A DNA stretch of 64,000 nt from Escherichia phage sutha: the sequence record PV245934.1; one strand, 5' to 3'. Below, piece after piece: positions 4,477 to 44,835 of the stretch. The position numbers and the translations under genes were made by a program. How positions within the stretch are numbered: the first letter of the stretch is position 1; the number at the start of each line of letters is the position of its first letter. The notes beneath the pieces were generated by a model. It was given only the letters and a program-made list of their open reading frames with translations, was not told the origin of the DNA and searched no databases.

Positions 4477-6042
4477 ATGACTATCAAAACTAAAGCTGAA
4501 CTTTTGAACAAATGGAAGCCATTACTGGAAGGTGAAGGTTTACCGGAAATTGCTAATAGCAAACAAGCGATTATCGCTAAAATCTTTGAAAACCAGGAAA
4601 AAGATTTCCAGACAGCTCCAGAGTACAAAGACGAAAAAATCGCTCAGGCGTTCGGTTCTTTCTTAACAGAAGCTGAAATCGGTGGTGACCACGGTTACAA
4701 TGCTACTAACATCGCTGCTGGTCAGACTTCTGGCGCAGTAACTCAGATTGGCCCAGCTGTTATGGGTATGGTACGTCGTGCTATTCCTAACCTGATTGCT
4801 TTCGATATTTGTGGCGTTCAGCCGATGAACAGCCCGACTGGCCAGGTATTCGCACTGCGTGCAGTATATGGTAAAGACCCAATCGCTGCCGATGCTAAAG
4901 AAGCATTCCACCCAATGTATGGTCCAGATGCAATGTTCTCTGGTCAGGGTGCTGCTAAGAAATTCCCAGCTCTGGCTGCTAGCACACAAACCGTTGTAGG
5001 TGATATCTATACTCACTTCTTCCAGGAAACTGGTACTGTGTATCTGCAAGCTTCCGCTGTAGTAACAATCGATGCTAGTGCTAACGATGCAACTAAACTG
5101 GATGCTGAAATTAAGAAACAAATGGAAGCTGGTGTACTGGTAGAAATCGCTGAAGGTATGGCTACTTCTATCGCTGAACTTCAGGAAGGTTTCAACGGTT
5201 CTACCGATAACCCATGGAATGAAATGGGCTTCCGTATCGATAAACAAGTTATCGAAGCTAAATCTCGTCAGCTGAAAGCTGCTTACTCTATCGAATTAGC
5301 ACAAGACCTCCGCGCTGTTCACGGTATGGATGCTGATGCTGAACTGTCTGGTATTCTGGCTACAGAAATCATGCTGGAAATCAACCGTGAAGTTGTTGAT
5401 TGGATTAACTACTCAGCTCAGGTTGGTAAATCTGGTATGACCCTGACTCCGGGTTCTAAAGCTGGTGTATTTGACTTCCAGGATCCGATTGATATTCGTG
5501 GTGCTCGCTGGGCGGGTGAATCCTTTAAAGCTCTGTTGTTCCAGATTGACAAAGAAGCAGTTGAAATTGCTCGTCAGACCGGCCGTGGTGAAGGTAACTT
5601 CATTATCGCTTCCCGTAACGTAGTTAACGTTCTGGCTTCAGTTGATACCGGCATTTCTTATGCTGCGCAGGGTCTGGCTACCGGCTTTAATACTGATACT
5701 ACCAAGTCAGTATTTGCTGGTGTTCTGGGTGGTAAATACCGTGTATATATCGACCAGTATGCTAAACAGGATTATTTCACTGTAGGTTATAAAGGTCCGA
5801 ACGAAATGGATGCTGGTATTTACTATGCTCCATATGTAGCTCTGACTCCGCTGCGTGGTTCCGATCCGAAGAACTTCCAACCAGTAATGGGATTCAAAAC
5901 TCGTTACGGTATCGGTATCAACCCATTTGCAGAATCCGCTGCTCAGGCTCCGGCTTCTCGCATCCAGAGCGGTATGCCTTCTATTCTGAATAGCCTTGGT
6001 AAAAACGCTTACTTCCGCCGTGTATATGTTAAAGGTATCTAA
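4477..6042 (+). CDS. 23: major capsid protein gp23
   Basis: 521 aa; MTIKTKAELLNKWKPLLEGEGLPEIANSKQAIIAKIFENQ... matches T4 gp23 by recall. Confidence 0.97.
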   Translation: MTIKTKAELLNKWKPLLEGEGLPEIANSKQAIIAKIFENQEKDFQTAPEYKDEKIAQAFGSFLTEAEIGGDHGYNATNIAAGQTSGAVTQIGPAVMGMVRRAIPNLIAFDICGVQPMNSPTGQVFALRAVYGKDPIAADAKEAFHPMYGPDAMFSGQGAAKKFPALAASTQTVVGDIYTHFFQETGTVYLQASAVVTIDASANDATKLDAEIKKQMEAGVLVEIAEGMATSIAELQEGFNGSTDNPWNEMGFRIDKQVIEAKSRQLKAAYSIELAQDLRAVHGMDADAELSGILATEIMLEINREVVDWINYSAQVGKSGMTLTPGSKAGVFDFQDPIDIRGARWAGESFKALLFQIDKEAVEIARQTGRGEGNFIIASRNVVNVLASVDTGISYAAQGLATGFNTDTTKSVFAGVLGGKYRVYIDQYAKQDYFTVGYKGPNEMDAGIYYAPYVALTPLRGSDPKNFQPVMGFKTRYGIGINPFAESAAQAPASRIQSGMPSILNSLGKNAYFRRVYVKGI

Positions 6043-6057
6043 TCTTTGACGATTTAA

Positions 6058-6073
6058 GGGACCTTCGGGTCCC
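6058..6073 (+). terminator. intrinsic terminator GGGACC-ttcg-GGTCCC with UUCG tetraloop
   Basis: Perfect hairpin followed by T-rich tract directly after gene 23 stop. Confidence 0.75.
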
Positions 6074-6090
6074 TTTAGTTGTTTTTATGG

Positions 6091-6098
6091 TATAAATA
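6091..6098 (+). promoter_or_regulatory. late promoter TATAAATA (gene 24)
   Basis: Exact TATAAATA 28 bp upstream of gene 24 ATG. Confidence 0.7.
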
Positions 6099-6125
6099 AA
6101 TCATATAAACCAAAAGGAAAGCGCA

Positions 6126-7409
6126 ATGGCTAAAATCAACGAACTTCTGCGCGAATCAACCACAACGAATAGCAACTCAATCGGTCGCCCAAATCTCGTT
6201 GCTTTGACTCGCGCTACCACTAAATTAATATATTCTGACATTGTAGCAACGCAAAGAACTAATCAACCTGTTGCTGCTTTTTATGGTATCAAATACCTTA
6301 ACCCAGATAACGAATTTACATTTAAAACTGGTGCTACTTACGCTGGCGAAGCTGGGTACGTAGACCGAGAACAAATCACAGAATTAACAGAAGAGTCTAA
6401 ATTAACTCTCAATAAAGGCGATTTATTCAAATATAATAATATCGTTTATAAAGTATTAGAAGATACACCATTTGCTACCATTGAAGAAAGCGATTTAGAA
6501 TTAGCTCTTCAGATTGCAATTGTTCTTTTAAAGGTTCGTTTATTTTCTGATGCTGCAGTAACAAGCAAATTTGAAAGCTCTGATAGTGAAATTGCGGATG
6601 CTAGATTCCAGATTAATAAATGGCAAACCGCAGTTAAATCTCGTAAACTTAAAACTGGCATCACAGTTGAATTAGCACAAGATTTAGAAGCAAATGGATT
6701 CGATGCTCCTAATTTCTTGGAAGATTTGCTTGCAACTGAAATGGCAGATGAAATCAATAAAGATATTCTGCAGTCTTTGATTACAGTATCAAAACGCTAT
6801 AAAGTTACAGGAATTACTGATACTGGATTCATTGATTTGAGTTATGCATCTGCACCTGAAGCTGGTCGTTCATTATACCGAATGGTGTGTGAAATGGTTT
6901 CGCATATCCAAAAAGAATCAACTTATACTGCAACGTTCTGTGTTGCTTCAGCTCGTGCTGCTGCGATTCTTGCTGCATCAGGTTGGTTAAAACATAAACC
7001 AGAAGATGATAAATATCTTTCACAAAATGCCTACGGGTTCTTAGCTAATGGTTTACCGCTTTATTGCGATACCAACAGCCCATTAGATTATGTAATCGTT
7101 GGTGTAGTAGAAAATATCGGTGAAAAAGAAATTGTTGGATCAATTTTCTATGCTCCGTATACAGAAGGTCTTGACTTAGATGACCCTGAACATGTAGGTG
7201 CATTTAAAGTTGTAGTTGATCCAGAAAGCTTACAACCATCTATCGGTTTATTGGTTAGATATGCTTTATCTGCAAATCCTTACACTGTAGCAAAAGATGA
7301 AAAAGAAGCAAGAATAATTGATGGTGGAGACATGGATAAAATGGCGGGTCGTTCAGATTTGTCTGTTTTATTAGGTGTTAAATTACCAAAAATTATCGTT
7401 GATGAATAA
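6126..7409 (+). CDS. 24: capsid vertex protein gp24
   Basis: 427 aa, gp23 paralogue pattern; T4 gp24 size and position. Confidence 0.95.
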   Translation: MAKINELLRESTTTNSNSIGRPNLVALTRATTKLIYSDIVATQRTNQPVAAFYGIKYLNPDNEFTFKTGATYAGEAGYVDREQITELTEESKLTLNKGDLFKYNNIVYKVLEDTPFATIEESDLELALQIAIVLLKVRLFSDAAVTSKFESSDSEIADARFQINKWQTAVKSRKLKTGITVELAQDLEANGFDAPNFLEDLLATEMADEINKDILQSLITVSKRYKVTGITDTGFIDLSYASAPEAGRSLYRMVCEMVSHIQKESTYTATFCVASARAAAILAASGWLKHKPEDDKYLSQNAYGFLANGLPLYCDTNSPLDYVIVGVVENIGEKEIVGSIFYAPYTEGLDLDDPEHVGAFKVVVDPESLQPSIGLLVRYALSANPYTVAKDEKEARIIDGGDMDKMAGRSDLSVLLGVKLPKIIVDE

Positions 7410-7415
7410 AACAAA

Positions 7416-7431
7416 GGGACCGAAAGGTCCC
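7416..7431. terminator. bidirectional terminator GGGACC-gaaa-GGTCCC between convergent gene 24 and rnlB
   Basis: Palindromic hairpin flanked by A-run on the left and T-run on the right. Confidence 0.7.
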
Positions 7432-7438
7432 TTTTTAT

Positions 7439-8443
7439 TTAACTTACCAGTTCAATCCAAGCCGGACGAAGTACATCTTGTACCATTTTAACTAATTCCT
7501 TTTTAATCAAAGAAGGATTATCCGCTTGAGTTAAAGTAATACCTTCACGAGAAGTTTCTTCCAAAATATCTTGAACAGTTAGTCCCATCACCTTTCCAAA
7601 ATCCTTTGGACCAATTTCGCCAATTTTAGAAATAACGTTATTTACTCGGTTCAGTGTAACGTAGCAAGCTAAAATTCCCAGCAATTTATTATCAGCTTCT
7701 GACAGCTCAACTTTAGCTTTAATAGGCTTATCAGACTTTTTCTTTTCGCTAAATTTAGAGTTCTTGCATTTAATAGCTACACGATTGCCATTAGGCATCC
7801 AAGAAGGATAACAAGGTTTCAATACATAACCTTCAGCGGTAAATACTTCACCTTTCGCTTCGGCATTCCAAACGCATTTATTTGCATCAACTAATCCAGC
7901 ATGGTCTACTGTAAAATTATAATCCTGGACGACAGAATCTAAATCATTTGGCAATTTAATAAGTTCTTCAAATTTACCACGACCCAAAAGTGGAGCCATT
8001 TTAAATTTGAATGTATTACAGAATGATTCCATCATATAATCATCGACATAAGTCACATCACCACTTTCTGTAGTAACAATAATGTCAAATACATAAAAAT
8101 CTTTATCGCCATAATCAACATTCTTCTGAATGCCAGGTCCAGCAAATTCGCCGAAGACTTGATAAGATACAACTGCTGAAGTTTCCATAATATCTTGTAC
8201 TGCTTTAATGGAATCAGCGTAATTCTTTAGAATAATTTCATACCCAAAGAAATCTTCAGCAGGAAGAATCGGTCCAGTACGTTTAGCACAAGTTGCTTTA
8301 TCGCGTTCAATAATCAGTGAGAAATTTGTGCCATGAATCTTTTCACGAGCTACCCATTCGCCGCCAGTCAATCCTAAACTGTAAAGTTTTTCAATGAATT
8401 TAGAATTGTAATGATTTTCAAGACTGCTATACTTTTTAAACAT
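7439..8443 (-). CDS. rnlB: RNA ligase 2 (Rnl2)
   Basis: 334 aa; [20 protein letters not shown]...KIHGTNFS with ligase lysine motif KxHGxN; matches T4 gp24.1 by recall. Confidence 0.93.
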
Positions 8444-35781: not shown

Positions 35782-37369
<1,588 letters not shown>

Positions 37370-37377
37370 AATAAAAT

Positions 37378-37391
37378 GGGCCTTGCGGCCC
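37378..37391. terminator. hairpin GGGCC-ttgc-GGCCC
   Basis: Perfect stem between nrdB stop and denA start. Confidence 0.5.
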
Positions 37392-37396
37392 ACTCC

Positions 37397-38566
37397 TTAA
37401 AAATATTTTTTAAAACTCATCATAACTTTATCATCAACATCATTATCAATCTGTGCTACAAGGTAAGATGACAGTTCTACTTCTTGTGGCGCGGATTGAA
37501 CATTATCAGAATTAAGATATTCACGAATCCAAGGATACGGATGTTTAACCGGAGCATCAGTAATTGGGCATGGAAGACCACACTGTTTCATACGAGATAC
37601 AGTTAAGTAATCAATAAAGCTCCACATGCTATTTGTATTTAATCCAGGAACATCGCCATCTTTAAATAAATGAACTGCCCAGTCTTTTTCTTGACGGTTA
37701 ACTTCCATGAAAATATCAACTGCTTCTTGTTCACACTCTTGGGCGATTTTAACCCATTCATCACCATCAGTGCCAAGTTGAAGTTGACGAATAATATATT
37801 GGGTGCCTTTAAGGTGAAGCTGCTCATCACGTGCAATGAACTTCATAATCTTGGCATTACCTTCCATAATTTCCATGTTCTTATGGAAGTTAAAGGTACA
37901 TGCGAAAGATACATAAAAACGAATAGCTTCCAATGCGTTGATTACATGAAGGCAAAGATAAAGAGATTTCATTAGTGCCCGTTTAGTATATTCAACAACT
38001 TTGCCTAGCTCTTCTTTACGAAATCCTTCTGATAAAATTCCTTCATAATCTTCAACCGCATTCTGATATTCACGAGTCTTAACTAGAACATCATCATAAT
38101 AGCGACCAATAGATTCAGCACGTTTCATGATAGCTTTATCTAATACAATCTCATCAAATACCTTTGATGGATCAGTATAAAGATTTCGCATAATATGAGT
38201 ATATGAACGGCTGTGAATAGTTTCGCTAAAAGTCCATGTAGCAACCCATGTATCAAGACTTGGGTCTGAAATTAACGACATAAGTACAGCAGACGGCGCA
38301 CGACCCTGAATGCTATCCAAAAGTGATTGATACTTCAGGTTATTAGTAAAAATATCTTGCTGATATTGAGGAAGCTTGTTAAATTGTGCAGCATCCATCA
38401 TTAAGTTTACTTCTTCAGGACGCCAGAAAAATGATAACTGCTTTTCGGTTAAATCTTCAAAAACTTTATGGCGTTGAATATCATAACGCGCAATACCAAG
38501 ACCTGAACCGAAGAACATAGGTTCTTTTAAAACATCAACTGGATTTGTATTAAAAACTGTGCTCAT
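37397..38566 (-). CDS. nrdB: ribonucleotide reductase small subunit NrdB, uninterrupted (no intron)
   Basis: 389 aa continuous ORF MSTVFNTNPVDVLKEPMFFGSGLG...KKYF with di-iron radical signature; T4 nrdB is split by an intron, this copy is not. Confidence 0.95.
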   Translation of the reverse strand: MSTVFNTNPVDVLKEPMFFGSGLGIARYDIQRHKVFEDLTEKQLSFFWRPEEVNLMMDAAQFNKLPQYQQDIFTNNLKYQSLLDSIQGRAPSAVLMSLISDPSLDTWVATWTFSETIHSRSYTHIMRNLYTDPSKVFDEIVLDKAIMKRAESIGRYYDDVLVKTREYQNAVEDYEGILSEGFRKEELGKVVEYTKRALMKSLYLCLHVINALEAIRFYVSFACTFNFHKNMEIMEGNAKIMKFIARDEQLHLKGTQYIIRQLQLGTDGDEWVKIAQECEQEAVDIFMEVNRQEKDWAVHLFKDGDVPGLNTNSMWSFIDYLTVSRMKQCGLPCPITDAPVKHPYPWIREYLNSDNVQSAPQEVELSSYLVAQIDNDVDDKVMMSFKKYF

Positions 38567-38617
38567 AAATTTTCCGCTTAGTTAATAGATAGTGACTCGT
38601 CCGTGAGTCAAATTATA

Positions 38618-40882
38618 TCATAATTTACAGGATGAACAATCTTCAGCTTTTGGAGTTTCTATTTCATAATCATCAGTACCAGAACCATCGCGGGTATTAT
38701 GATAATAGAAATTTTTTCCGCCAAAATACCAAAAATACAAAAGGTCATCAATCATTATTGACATTGGAACCTTTCCTTTTGGAAAAATCTGCGGGTCATA
38801 ATATGTATTTGCTGAAGCTGATTGACATACCCATTTAAGCATAATAGCTACCTGCGTAAGATAAGGTTTATTACCTTTCTTAGCTAATTTCCACGTATAA
38901 TCATAGAGGTCTATGTTATGCTCAATATTGGGCACGACTTGATTAAAGGAACCCTCTTTTGATTCTTTAACAGAGACTGGTCCACGTGGAGGCTCGATAC
39001 CGTTTGTACTGTTAGAAACTTGGGAAGATGACTCACATGGCATAAGTGCTGATAATGTGCTATTACGGATGCCAAAGAGCTTAAGGTCTTCCCGCAGCGA
39101 CGACCAGTCACAAACGTATTTTGGAGCTGCGATTTGGTCAATCTTTTTATTGTACCAGTCGATAGGTAATTCGCCTCGAGACCAACGAGTGTCTGAATAA
39201 TATTCGCAAGGTCCTTTTTCTTTGGCGAGCTTAATGGATGCTTTAATGAGTCCATACTGCAATCTCTCAAATAGTTCATGTGTTAAATCGTTAGCATCTT
39301 CATAAGAAGCAAAGTTACTTGCCAGCCAAGCTGCATAGTTAGTAACACCTACGCCAAGGTTTCGACGCTTTTTAGCTTTTTCTGCTTCAGGAACTGGATA
39401 TCCTTGGTAATCCAAAAGATTATCAAGAGCGCGAACTTGAACTTCTGCTAATTCATTAATTTTATCTTGGTCTTGCCAATCGAAGTTATCCAACACGAAT
39501 GCAGATAACGTACACAATCCAATTTCAGCATCAGGACTATTCACATCATTTGTTGGAATAGCAATTTCACAGCACAAGTTACTCTGACGAATAGGTGCCT
39601 TTTCACGAATAAATGGAGTATAGTTATTCGTATTATCAATGAACTGCACATAAATCCTTGCTGTTCCTGAGCGTTCAGTCATTAGCAATTCAAACAGTTC
39701 ACGTGCTTTAATACGCTTTTTACGAATATTAGGGTCTTTTTCTGCGGCTTCATATAATTCACGGAAACGGTCTTGGTCTTTAAAATAAGAATAATAAAGC
39801 TCGCCACTCATTTCATGCGGACTGAACAAAGTAATGTAGTCGTTCTTTCCAAAACGTTCCATCATCAAATCATTCAGCTGAACGCCATAATCCATATGAC
39901 GGATACGGTTTTCTTCTACGCCTTTGTTATTTTTCAAAACGAGAAGATTTTCAACTTCCAAATGCCAAATAGGATAATAAGCAGTAGCAGCGCCGCCACG
40001 AATTCCACCCTGTGAGCATGATTTAACAGCAGTCTGAAAATGTTTCCAAAAAGGAATAACACCAGTATGGCGTACTTCACCTGTACCAATCTTAGAACCT
40101 TCGGCACGAATCATACCAACGTTAATACCAATTCCAGCGCGTTTGGAGATATATTCAACAATTGAAGCGGAAACCTTATTGATAGACTTCAGCGAATCAC
40201 CTGCCTCAATAACAACACATGAACTAAACTGTCGAGTCGGAGTACGACAACCAGCCATAATAGGAGTTGGTAATGAAATTTGTCGAGTAGATACTGCTTC
40301 ATAAAAACGAATAACATGTTTTAATCTATCAACAGGTTCATCTTGATGTAATGCCATTCCAATAGTCATAAATGCAAACTGTGGAGTTTCATAAATTTGA
40401 CCAGTGGTTTTATCTTTAACGAGATATTTTTCTTTTAATTGCATCGCCCCGGAATAAGTAAATTCCATATCCCGCTCGTGCTTAATTTTTGATTCTAAAA
40501 ATGTAATTTCTTCTGCTGAATATTTTGACAGCAGTTCAGGGTCATATTTACCTTCATTTACACAGTAAGAAATATGGTCAATAAATGAACGTGGTTCATA
40601 TTGCCCATAAACATGCTTACGAAGAGCAAACATTAAACAGCGAGCGGCTACATATTGATAATCAGGCTCTTCAACTGAAATAGAATTCGCAGCAGCCTTA
40701 ATTACAATGGTTTGAATGTCATCAGTGGTCATTCCATCACGGAGATATGATTTAATATTTTCATATAATTCATAAGGATCTACAGATGTTCCTTCGGCTG
40801 CCCAAGATAAAACTTTAATAATTTTTTGTGGATCAAAGCTCTGAGAAACACCACTACTTTTGATAACATTAATTAATTGCAT
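38618..40882 (-). CDS. nrdA: ribonucleotide reductase large subunit NrdA
   Basis: 754 aa from MQLINVIKSSGVSQSFDPQKII... matching T4 NrdA by recall; track ORF has a 32-codon in-frame extension; AGAGGA Shine-Dalgarno before ATG at 40882. Confidence 0.95.
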   Translation of the reverse strand: MQLINVIKSSGVSQSFDPQKIIKVLSWAAEGTSVDPYELYENIKSYLRDGMTTDDIQTIVIKAAANSISVEEPDYQYVAARCLMFALRKHVYGQYEPRSFIDHISYCVNEGKYDPELLSKYSAEEITFLESKIKHERDMEFTYSGAMQLKEKYLVKDKTTGQIYETPQFAFMTIGMALHQDEPVDRLKHVIRFYEAVSTRQISLPTPIMAGCRTPTRQFSSCVVIEAGDSLKSINKVSASIVEYISKRAGIGINVGMIRAEGSKIGTGEVRHTGVIPFWKHFQTAVKSCSQGGIRGGAATAYYPIWHLEVENLLVLKNNKGVEENRIRHMDYGVQLNDLMMERFGKNDYITLFSPHEMSGELYYSYFKDQDRFRELYEAAEKDPNIRKKRIKARELFELLMTERSGTARIYVQFIDNTNNYTPFIREKAPIRQSNLCCEIAIPTNDVNSPDAEIGLCTLSAFVLDNFDWQDQDKINELAEVQVRALDNLLDYQGYPVPEAEKAKKRRNLGVGVTNYAAWLASNFASYEDANDLTHELFERLQYGLIKASIKLAKEKGPCEYYSDTRWSRGELPIDWYNKKIDQIAAPKYVCDWSSLREDLKLFGIRNSTLSALMPCESSSQVSNSTNGIEPPRGPVSVKESKEGSFNQVVPNIEHNIDLYDYTWKLAKKGNKPYLTQVAIMLKWVCQSASANTYYDPQIFPKGKVPMSIMIDDLLYFWYFGGKNFYYHNTRDGSGTDDYEIETPKAEDCSSCKL

Positions 40883-40907
40883 AAGTCCTCTGTAGTAAGT
40901 TACTCCA

Positions 40908-40915
40908 TATAAATA
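40908..40915 (+). promoter_or_regulatory. late promoter TATAAATA for antisense homing endonuclease gene
   Basis: Exact TATAAATA 22 bp upstream of ATG at 40938, then AGGAG Shine-Dalgarno. Confidence 0.6.
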
Positions 40916-40937
40916 TAATTTTATATAGGAGAATATA

Positions 40938-41669
40938 ATGAAATCTGGAATATATGCTATTATAAACACTAAAACCAATAAGCACTATATAGGAAGTGCA
41001 ATTAATTTTGAAGAACGATGGAAACGACACTTCAAAGATTTAGATAATGGAAATCATCATTCAATAAAGCTGCAACGTTCTTATAATAAGCATGGGAAAG
41101 ATGCTTTCGTATGTAAAATCATAGAAGAACTTCCATACGAAAAATCTATCATTATTGAACGTGAAAATTATTGGATACATGAATATGACTCAAAGGAAAA
41201 TGGGTATAATATAGCAGACGCATCGTTTGGGGATACCTTATCTCATCACCCAAGAAAGCAAGAAATCCTTAATAAAATTTCAAATGCAATTAAAAATAAT
41301 AATTCAAAATTATCACCAGAAGAACTTAAGCAAAAACATGGTAGACCTAAAGATATTAAAGGTAAAACTATAGAAGAACACTATGGGTTAGATCGTGCTA
41401 TAGAAATAAGCAAAAAGTTCCAAGAAAGAAACGCTGCACTTAATATGAAAGGCATCAATAATCCATATTATGGACAGACACATACCAATGAAGTTAGAAA
41501 ACGAATTTCTGACTCACAAAGAGGTAAAAAGAAACCCCATCTAAGAGTAAGTATAGATGGGGTAGAATATCCAACAATAGCAGAAGCTGTGCGTCAAACC
41601 GGAATAAGCAGAAAACTTATATCTAAAAGATGTGCTCTAGATTGTTGGGAATCATATTTATACTGCTAA
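40938..41669 (+). CDS. free-standing GIY-YIG homing endonuclease, I-TevI-like catalytic domain with NUMOD/HTH C-terminus
   Basis: 243 aa; first ~100 aa ([21 protein letters not shown]...RWKRHFKDL...[12 protein letters not shown]...IIERENYWI...[13 protein letters not shown]) closely parallel I-TevI; C-term [22 protein letters not shown] and [22 protein letters not shown]; antisense to flanking nrdA/td. Confidence 0.85.
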
Positions 41670-41903
41670 AGTTCTACATTCGTCATATTGTTTTTCCGTT
41701 AAAACAGTAATATCATAATAACAATCTGAAGAAGTTTTAACTGTAGAAATTTTATTATCAAAATACTCACGAGTCATTTTATGAGTATAATATTTTTTGC
41801 CATAAATGACAATAGGCTGTTCTGGTCCTGGAACTTCTAACTCGCTTGGATTAGGAAGTGTAAAAAGAACTACACCAGAAGTATCTTTAAATCGTAAAAT
41901 CAT
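41658..41903 (-). CDS. hypothetical protein between td and nrdA
   Basis: 81 aa ORF, convergently overlaps the endonuclease 3' end by 12 bp. Confidence 0.6.
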
Positions 41904-41926
41904 ATATCCTCACAATTAATAATTAA

Positions 41927-42238
41927 TTACACCGCCATTTTTCCTTTAATAGAAGGGTGTGATTCGTAACCTTTAAGAACGAAATCTTTAGGCCTGAGTT
42001 TAAGAATGTATTCCAATTGTTCTTTAGTAGAAAGATAGCGGAATTTATAAGGCAATCCGCCTATTACCAGTTCACAAAGCTCTTTAGGTTCACGACGCAA
42101 AATTTCTTTACATTGTTCTACGTGATTCATATAGATATGAGTATTACCGCCAGAAAATATCAAATCTCCTGGAATAAGATTACACATCTTAGCTACAATA
42201 TGAACTAACGCAGCATATGATGCAATGTTGAACGGTAG
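41927..42238 (-). CDS. td: thymidylate synthase exon 2
   Basis: Encodes LPFNIASYAALVHIVAKMCNLIPGDLIFSGGNTHIYMNHVEQ...KGKMAV, matching the C-terminal 103 aa of T4 TS; preceded by intron 3' end ...CATAATG. Confidence 0.93.
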   Translation of the reverse strand, partial: LPFNIASYAALVHIVAKMCNLIPGDLIFSGGNTHIYMNHVEQCKEILRREPKELCELVIGGLPYKFRYLSTKEQLEYILKLRPKDFVLKGYESHPSIKGKMAV

Positions 42239-43254
42239 CATTATGTTCAGATAAGGTCGTTAATCTTATCCCGGAATTATATCCAGCTGCATGTCACCAT
42301 GCAGAGCAGACTATATCTCCAACTTGTTAAAGCAAGTTGTCTATCGTTTCGAGTCACTTGACCCTACTCCCTAAAGGGATAGTCGTTAGGCATTTATGTA
42401 GAACCAATTCCACTTATCAGATTTTACACGGTAAGTAACTAATCCTGATGAAATTTCAAAATGTCTAGCCGCATCGGCTGCACATTCAAAAATAATCCCA
42501 TCGCATGAAATCTTTTTGATGTTAGCTGGCTTTTTGCCTTTCATCTTTTCAGATAGTTTAGTTTTAGTTTTTTCTGAATGTTTGTGATTAAAGAACGGGT
42601 TATTTTCACCTGAACGTTTTCGGCACTTTCCACAAGTATCGGCCGAAGATGGTATGCGAACACCGCATTTACAAAACTTGTGGTTTTCTGGATTCCATCG
42701 GCCATTTTTACTTCCGTGTTTACCATAAAGAGCTTTCCGACCATCAGGACCAAGCTTAAGCATCTTAGCTTTAACAGTTTCAGCTCGTTTCTTAGCAATT
42801 TCTTCTTTTAATGGATGATTTGAAAGCACATCGCCAAAAGACGCATCAGCAATATTATATCCATTAATTTTAGAATTTAGCTCTTTAATCCAAAAATTTT
42901 CTCGTTCAATAATCAAATCTTTCTCATATGGAATTTCTTCCAGTACAGAGCATTCAAAAACATTACCATGTTTATTAAAAGACCTTTGAAATTTTATAGA
43001 AGAGTGAACACCGTTTTCAAGGTCTTTAAAATGTCTCTTCCATCTTTTCTCAAAATCTTTAGCACTTCCAACATACACTTTACCGTTTAAAGTGTTTTTA
43101 ATCTGATAAATTCCGCTTTTCATAAACACCTCTTTTTATATAGAAGTATTTATTAAAGGGTAGTCCTACAATTTAGCACGGGATTGTCTACTAGAGAGGT
43201 TCCCCGTTTAGATAGATTACAAGTATAAGTCACCTTATACTCAGGCCTAAATTA
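42239..43254 (-). mobile_element. group I self-splicing intron of td carrying I-TevI
   Basis: 1016 bp between exon 1 end (...VDVFLG, GGT then TAA in intron) and exon 2 start (CTACCG); 5' intron sequence TAATTGAGGCCTGAGTATAAGGTGACTTATACTTG as recalled for T4. Confidence 0.9.
42386..43123 (-). CDS. intron-encoded GIY-YIG homing endonuclease I-TevI
   Basis: 245 aa from [35 protein letters not shown]...; zinc finger CKCGVRIPSSADTCGKC; C-term HTH ...VTYRVKSDKWNWFYINA; matches I-TevI by recall. Confidence 0.93.
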   Translation of the reverse strand: MKSGIYQIKNTLNGKVYVGSAKDFEKRWKRHFKDLENGVHSSIKFQRSFNKHGNVFECSVLEEIPYEKDLIIERENFWIKELNSKINGYNIADASFGDVLSNHPLKEEIAKKRAETVKAKMLKLGPDGRKALYGKHGSKNGRWNPENHKFCKCGVRIPSSADTCGKCRKRSGENNPFFNHKHSEKTKTKLSEKMKGKKPANIKKISCDGIIFECAADAARHFEISSGLVTYRVKSDKWNWFYINA

Positions 43255-43802
43255 ACCTAAGAAAACATCGACACTGCGTTGGTACCATTGTAAATCCAAA
43301 TATCCATTACGCACATTAAACTGATAAAACATATGACAAGGTGGTAATGCCATTTGCTTAAGTTCTGCCGGATTCCATGCTGAAACAATTTGACGTCTAT
43401 CATTTGGCAGTTTTTTAATACGTTCAACAACTTCTATAATTTGATCTACACCACCAAAATCGCGCCACTGTTTTCCATAAATTGGACCAAGTTCACCGCT
43501 ATGGTATCCTAAATCTTTTGCTTGATTTTCGTAATTTTCATCCCAGACTGTTTTGCCTTGAATTAATGAATCATGTTGAATTAATCGCAAATCATTGACA
43601 TTTGTGCTTCCCGATAAAAACCATATTAGCTCAGCAATACAGGCTTTCCACGCTAATTTTTTAGTTGTTACCGCAGGAAAACCTTTAGTTAAATCCCAGC
43701 GTAATTTAGTACCAAACAAAGCAATTGTTCCTGTGCCTGTTCGGTCATCGGTTTCGTAACCATTTTCCAGGATATCTTTAATTAAAAATTGGTATTGTTT
43801 CA

Positions 43803-43803
<1 letters not shown>
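43255..43803 (-). CDS. td: thymidylate synthase exon 1
   Basis: 183 codons from ATG at 43803 (MKQYQFLIKDILENGYETDDRTGTGTIALFG...[30 protein letters not shown]); the track ORF begins at an upstream TTG. Confidence 0.93.

Positions 43804-44835
<1,032 letters not shown>

Follow-up and report, generated by a model that had tools for sequence, protein, structure and literature searches.

In phage T4 a group I intron carrying the I-TevIII ORF interrupts the gene nrdB, and the homing endonuclease gene mobE lies between nrdB and its neighbour nrdA. T-even phages vary in whether they have the nrdB intron and mobE, which has been textbook matter since 1987–2009 and furnished the original evidence for intron mobility. 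The corresponding locus of Escherichia phage sutha raises the question of whether both elements are really missing from it and, if so, whether the phage would be a donor or a target of such elements when it meets its relatives in the same cell. We addressed this question in a stretch of 64,000 nucleotides of the sequence record PV245934.1, referred to below as the window.

nrdA, nrdB and their products

The operon is transcribed from the minus strand, on which all features described here lie unless stated otherwise, in the order td (split, with the I-TevI ORF in its intron), a DUF5496 ORF, nrdA, a 51-bp spacer, nrdB and denA. The large-subunit gene nrdA (38618..40882) is uninterrupted and encodes a protein of 754 aa. 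Its true start is the ATG at 40882, which gives a T4-like N-terminus (MQLINVIK...); the TTG at 40978 found in the ORF list represents an upstream extension only. The Pfam domains ATP-cone, Ribonuc_red_lgN and Ribonuc_red_lgC (profile positions 1–523 of 523) cover the whole product. In Escherichia phage RPN226, a 96.5%-identical relative, nrdA (5128–8296) consists of two CDS with an HNH endonuclease gene between them, whereas the gene of the window is continuous; the split gene of RPN226 recalls the case of Aeh1, described in the literature, in which mobE resides inside nrdA.

The gene nrdB (37397..38566) encodes the small subunit of class Ia ribonucleotide reductase. The initial annotation described it as one uninterrupted ORF of 389 codons, and this number is exact: according to both the ORF list and the translation, nrdB is a single ATG-initiated ORF of 389 aa plus the stop codon, and the next ORF upstream on the minus strand ends at 38618. 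The product matches the Pfam family Ribonuc_red_sm (PF00268) over residues 33–332 with 128.7 bits (cut-off, 33.6) and is collinear with the structures of Escherichia coli R2 across residues 3–385 (E=3e-128). Residues D84, E115, H118, Y122, E213, E248 and H251 align with D84, E115, H118, Y122, E204, E238 and H241 of the E. coli protein (1piy_A), that is, with all di-iron ligands and the radical Tyr122. Family membership, the conserved ligands and tyrosine, and the adjacent nrdA all identify the gene as one for a class Ia R2. Since the di-iron ligands and the radical tyrosine are all retained, the predicted protein should be a functional di-iron/tyrosyl-radical class Ia R2. The phage protein and E. 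coli NrdB (PDB 1piy, 1rib) are collinear over 383 residues and have the iron ligands, Tyr122 and the C-terminal tail in common, whereas the former displays a variable loop longer by 9 residues (∼165–197) and an additional residue following the FAC motif. An antisense ORF of 101 aa on the plus strand inside nrdB (37670–37975) was set aside as a presumed chance ORF; it spans the intron insertion site and hence is broken in T4.

The empty intron and mobE sites

A T4 record bears out the description of this region in the initial annotation: it gives nrdB as two pieces, with an ORF labelled 'homing endonuclease' situated between nrdA and nrdB. Other T4 records name these features, as 'I-TevIII: defective homing endonuclease' and as 'mobE: MobE homing endonuclease'. 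The T4 copy of I-TevIII is a defective form with a deletion, and it is phage RB3 that has the active enzyme. Operon, gene order and strand are the same in T4 and the window, and the nrdB exons are 88% identical, with the 3' half of nrdB and the nrdB–denA junction being nearly identical. Pairwise alignment with T4 produced exactly two large gaps in the window, one equivalent to the 598-bp nrdB intron and the other to the 699-bp mobE ORF. The T4 insertion occurs after nrdB nt 664; the window is continuous there (...TATCTTTCGCAT|GTACCTTTAAC...) and its exon junction is in frame (...TATGTATCTTTCGCAT|GTACCTTTAACTTCC...; TTCGCAT|GTACC). The T4 alignment places the empty insertion site at 37900|37899, nrdB nt 667/668, inside the codon for Cys223 of ...YVSFAC|TFNF.... 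Alignment against the T4 exons, which had been proposed as a check, thus found the junction intact, and realignment disclosed no intron-like insertion. In the T4/RB3 type a group I intron is inserted behind base 1 of the codon for the Cys of YVSFAC; this intron is lacking from the window nrdB, as are the 1091-bp nrdB intron of RB3 and its ORF. The insertion site lies ten codons beyond the E204-equivalent ligand of NrdB, a position that fits the known preference of homing elements for conserved, functionally critical sequence.

The claimed absence of the nrdB intron and mobE, for which the alignment gaps provide one line of evidence, agrees with BLAST searches of the whole 64-kb window, in which no homologue of the T4 intron, the RB3 intron, MobE or the RB3 I-TevIII was found; the sole match to these queries is a stretch of 102 nt with 72.5% identity, located inside the td intron. 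Rfam at gathering thresholds yielded zero matches in the whole window and missed even the td intron, so that a search of this kind cannot be used to exclude an intron. With the threshold relaxed to E≤1, a scan of positions 37300–43900 gave no Intron_gpI signal in 37397–38617. The absence of an intron rests on this relaxed scan together with the collinearity of the gene with T2 and with E. coli R2. As the question is one of gene structure, chance is not at issue.

The spacer between nrdA and nrdB (38567..38617) represents the empty site where T4 has mobE. The distance of 51 bp given by the initial annotation is exact as judged from the ORF coordinates and the sequence, and the claim that no ORF intervenes is borne out by the ORF list, the T4 alignment and BLAST. 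Phage T2 also has a continuous nrdB (91% identical to that of the window at the nucleotide level) separated from nrdA by 51 bp, and the two spacers are identical at 49 of 51 positions. A pattern scan detected a hairpin in the spacer (TGACTC-ACGGAC-GAGTCA, 38593..38610) that was considered as a terminator and rejected: it is probably not one, having a weak 6-bp stem and a U-poor tail, and the fold energy of the spacer is no better than that of shuffled sequences (z = -1.04). This agrees with the published finding that mobE-less phages have no terminator in the nrdA–nrdB spacer (PMC2790892). A GC-rich hairpin followed by a T-run (GGGCC-GCAA-GGCCC, ∼37378–37391) was read by eye just 3' of the nrdB stop codon, although the pattern scan did not list it; the sequence is identical in T4. 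Directly after the nrdA stop codon the sequence reads TATAAT (38612..38617), which, going by the hexamer itself, might be a candidate −10 element of a separate nrdB middle promoter. A scan for sigma-70 promoters called 9 sites against 7.0 ± 3.1 expected and passed over this hexamer because it has no −35 element, as is the case in middle promoters.

The locus is of the empty T2 type: nrdB is continuous, the spacer is short and T2-like, and the allele at the MobE nick site (see below) is that of mobE-less phages. Two elements of T4 are simply missing, namely the group I intron in nrdB that contains the I-TevIII ORF and mobE, a free-standing gene for an HNH endonuclease. The conserved 51-bp spacer carries the ribosome-binding region of nrdB, and probably also the −10 element of its middle promoter, and the nrdB mRNA does not have to be spliced. 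The same picture might in principle result from an assembly or annotation artefact, in which the intron or mobE had been collapsed out of the sequence. No evidence in support of this was found at the nrdA–nrdB locus of the window, and the junctions are exact, in frame and reproduced in hundreds of independent records, including those of T2, RB14, PST and TB004; an artefact is thus barely conceivable.

Predicted homing targets in nrdB

Having established that both sites are empty, we looked for the target sequences of the two endonucleases in nrdB, as had been proposed in the initial annotation. MobE-dependent nicks have been mapped to nt 122–126 of T2 nrdB, and the proposed target comprises the polymorphic nt 114–131 together with the conserved block encoding FFWRPEE (PMC2790892). 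The equivalent bipartite target in the window is located at 38411..38453, with the nick region at 38441–38445. Its nt 114–131 are the same as in T2, the FFWRPEE block is kept, and codon 42 is AAG, as reported for mobE-less phages (PMC2790892). The polymorphisms across nrdB nt ∼95–135 are likewise of the T2 and not of the T4 type, T4 departing from the window and T2 at many positions of the MobE target. The window differs from T2 by a synonymous change at nt 132, just 3' of the polymorphic region. The activity of MobE has never been reconstituted in vitro (PMC2790892).

I-TevIII cuts at positions −14/−16 relative to the intron insertion site. The equivalent of its homing site, −31 to +31, occupies 37869..37930 of the window, and the published cuts would fall at ∼37914–37916. 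Within this region the window is identical at 60 of 62 positions to the T4-deltaIn substrate, which is cleaved, the two exceptions being −5, where it has C instead of T, and −2, where it has A instead of G. The change at −2 is common to T2 and the window, so that the window and T2 have a single difference here, at −5. The search therefore uncovered a T2-like MobE allele and an I-TevIII site close to that of T4-deltaIn. Phage RB3 possesses an intact I-TevIII, an HNH enzyme that cuts both strands as a dimer, and the window contains the cognate intron-less target.

The suggestion that this phage could be either a donor or a target in homing during co-infection is a reasonable one, and the sequence allows it to be specified by element. 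With both sites empty, the MobE nick region T2-like and the I-TevIII site close to that of T4-deltaIn, the phage would be expected to act as a recipient of mobE and of the nrdB intron. For the td intron the predicted role is that of a donor, given that the I-TevI of the phage is full-length and intact. During mixed infection with a phage carrying mobE (T4, T6) or an active I-TevIII (RB3 type), nrdB would be nicked or cut; repair from the donor genome would then copy in mobE and/or the intron, along with flanking markers.

Single base pairs can matter to homing endonucleases, and some caution is warranted since, in the window, −5 and −2 are not as in the tested substrate and nt 132 is not as in T2. 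It might be argued on these grounds that the sites are empty because drift has made nrdB resistant to cutting by MobE and/or I-TevIII, in which case the phage would be neither donor nor target. The two substitutions close to the insertion site and the synonymous change beside the polymorphic MobE region are compatible with this possibility. However, the sequence of nt 114–131 and of the FFWRPEE block is that of the T2 allele which has been nicked experimentally, the I-TevIII cut positions are unchanged along with the bases around them, one of the two substitutions is shared with T2, and phage homing endonucleases have been described as sequence-tolerant. An immune allele of this kind is accordingly very unlikely, and we retain the prediction of a recipient at both nrdB sites.

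Distribution and history of the locus

The 7.5-kb segment 35000–42500 of the window matched 887 phage records. The best match, to Shigella phage TB004 (Tequatrovirus), extends over the full length in one piece with 98.3% identity, and on the basis of such matches the phage is assigned to the T4-like phages of the genus Tequatrovirus. In order to estimate how common the empty state is, the two junctions were counted separately and an evenly spaced sample of the matches was inspected. A 191-bp query across the nrdA/spacer/nrdB junction was found uninterrupted in 373 of the 515 phage records that it matched, and a 140-bp query across the exon junction in 497 of 601. The T4 intron was present at ≥80% coverage in 118 records only, and mobE-like sequence in ∼140. 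In the evenly spaced sample, nrdB and the spacer formed a single block of 1221–1230 bp in 24 of 34 rows at ≥88% identity.

Most of the top matches to the 7.5-kb segment (PST, JK08, ACG-C40, fFiEco06 and others) reach the end of the query inside the td intron, and in most of them nrdB is continuous, mobE is absent and the single missing stretch has approximately the size of an inverted GIY-YIG ORF (∼730 bp; see below). The combination of a td intron with a continuous nrdB and no mobE is therefore itself common. Thus, the unusualness implied by the initial annotation did not hold: an intron-less, mobE-less nrdA–nrdB region is the majority state among the sequenced relatives and the classical arrangement of T2, and it is T4, rather than the phage studied here, that is the outlier at this locus. 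T4 has indeed been called an oddity for its endonuclease load. Pedersen-Lane and Belfort 1987, as cited in a passage of PMC1865063, reported the nrdB intron to be missing from T2 and T6, and phages with and without mobE have been compared explicitly (PMC2790892).

The other mobile elements recognised in the initial annotation, namely the td intron with I-TevI and an additional endonuclease between nrdA and td, were both recovered. A group I intron interrupts the td gene (41927–43815); the I-TevI ORF within this intron (43123–42389) is full-length, with 88.6% amino acid identity to the T4 protein, and the region is collinear with T4 over 1487 bp. The only group I intron match obtained with Rfam at E≤1 was to 42287–42517 in td, covering the 3' part of the intron, with 36.2 bits, below the cut-off of 50. 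The td intron with I-TevI is thus held in common with T4, whereas the window is without the 598-bp nrdB intron, the 699-bp mobE and a 108-aa ORF that T4 has next to nrdA. The T2 record differs in the opposite direction, its td being uninterrupted and its nrdA having no GIY-YIG ORF nearby, whereas in the window td contains the intron with I-TevI and a GIY-YIG ORF is present in inverted orientation.

This latter ORF, identified with Pfam, is a free-standing endonuclease gene on the plus strand (40938–41669; 243 aa), the product of which contains GIY-YIG and NUMOD3 domains and a sub-threshold I-TevI DNA-binding domain and shows 46% identity to I-TevI along its entire length. The ORF is oriented opposite to all of its neighbours and is positioned between the DUF5496 ORF and nrdA, where T4 has the 108-aa ORF; it overlaps the DUF5496 ORF at the 3' end of the latter. 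Only 26 phage records contain this rare ORF, of which 8 belong to Escherichia and Shigella Tequatrovirus phages (98–100% identity) and 18 to Klebsiella phages (90–92%). In the one Klebsiella phage examined, PKO111 (Jiaodavirus), the ORF is likewise inverted and lies between nrdA and an intron-less td. Such a distribution points to transfer between genera and to a target that may be td-directed. The DUF5496 ORF (41658–41903; 81 aa) is 98.7% identical to an 87-aa ORF of T4 over 75 residues and has a different C-terminus; the divergence starts near the overlap with the GIY-YIG ORF, as if the insertion had replaced its 3' end.

Sliding-window comparison revealed a hypervariable cassette within nrdB (37967..38097; nt ∼470–600, residues ∼160–200), located between the MobE and intron sites. 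Its identity to T2, T4 and RPN226 is 32–60%, whereas the flanks are 95–100% identical. At least four peptide alleles exist among close relatives; T2 has another allele than the window, and the NrdB of the two phages are 392 aa and 389 aa long, respectively. The cassette is also the only gapped and poorly aligned stretch, a loop, in the alignment with E. coli R2. Candidate causes are a recombination hotspot, diversifying selection and an endonuclease scar. A second peculiarity was encountered in TB004. At nrdB nt ∼95–135, corresponding to 38432–38472 of the window, this phage carries the allele of the T4/mobE type (RVFEELIE, codon 42 AAA) and yet has no mobE. The AAA at codon 42 is an exception to the published rule of AAG in mobE-less phages (PMC2790892).

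Very probably, the nrdA–nrdB locus of the window represents the aerobic ribonucleotide reductase operon of T-even phages in its uninvaded, T2-type form, in a phage predicted to be a recipient there and a donor of the td intron, and we infer that the lineage was never invaded. Alternatively, an ancestor may have had the nrdB intron and/or mobE, and an empty relative, through homologous recombination during co-infection, may have precisely restored the sites. Cyclical gain and loss of homing endonucleases has been proposed in the literature, which also suggests that the eroded T4 intron is being lost. The locus is a mosaic, as evident from the cassette set between nearly identical flanks, and TB004, a 98%-identical phage in which a T4-like MobE-target allele occurs without mobE, indicates that such exchanges happen in this lineage. 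On the other hand, the first 450 nt of nrdB, like the spacer, resemble T2 with 95–100% identity, and neither contains a co-conversion tract of the T4 type. Moreover, most records of the collection show the empty state, and nothing separates nrdA from nrdB in the one Klebsiella Jiaodavirus locus examined either, both of which fit an ancestral state. We consequently regard secondary loss as unlikely and favour the uninvaded T2-type locus.

The nrdA–nrdB arrangement is, in conclusion, real and already known, being the long-known T2 type, and its significance beyond correct annotation is small. More unusual in the vicinity are the rare inverted GIY-YIG ORF, the hypervariable cassette of nrdB and the MobE-site allele of TB004. 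The opposite alleles at the MobE site ('naive' in the window, 'protected' in TB004) and the cassette could possibly be footprints of an ongoing arms race between endonucleases and their targets in natural Tequatrovirus populations, in which resistance alleles spread without the endonuclease gene, an idea that we put forward only tentatively and with some doubt. If it is true, the phage described here would be a natural sensitive control with which to measure that race. In mixed infections the phage would probably receive mobE and the nrdB intron and pass on the td intron, which is of use for predicting marker exclusion and recombination among T4-like phages that are employed together, as in cocktails.
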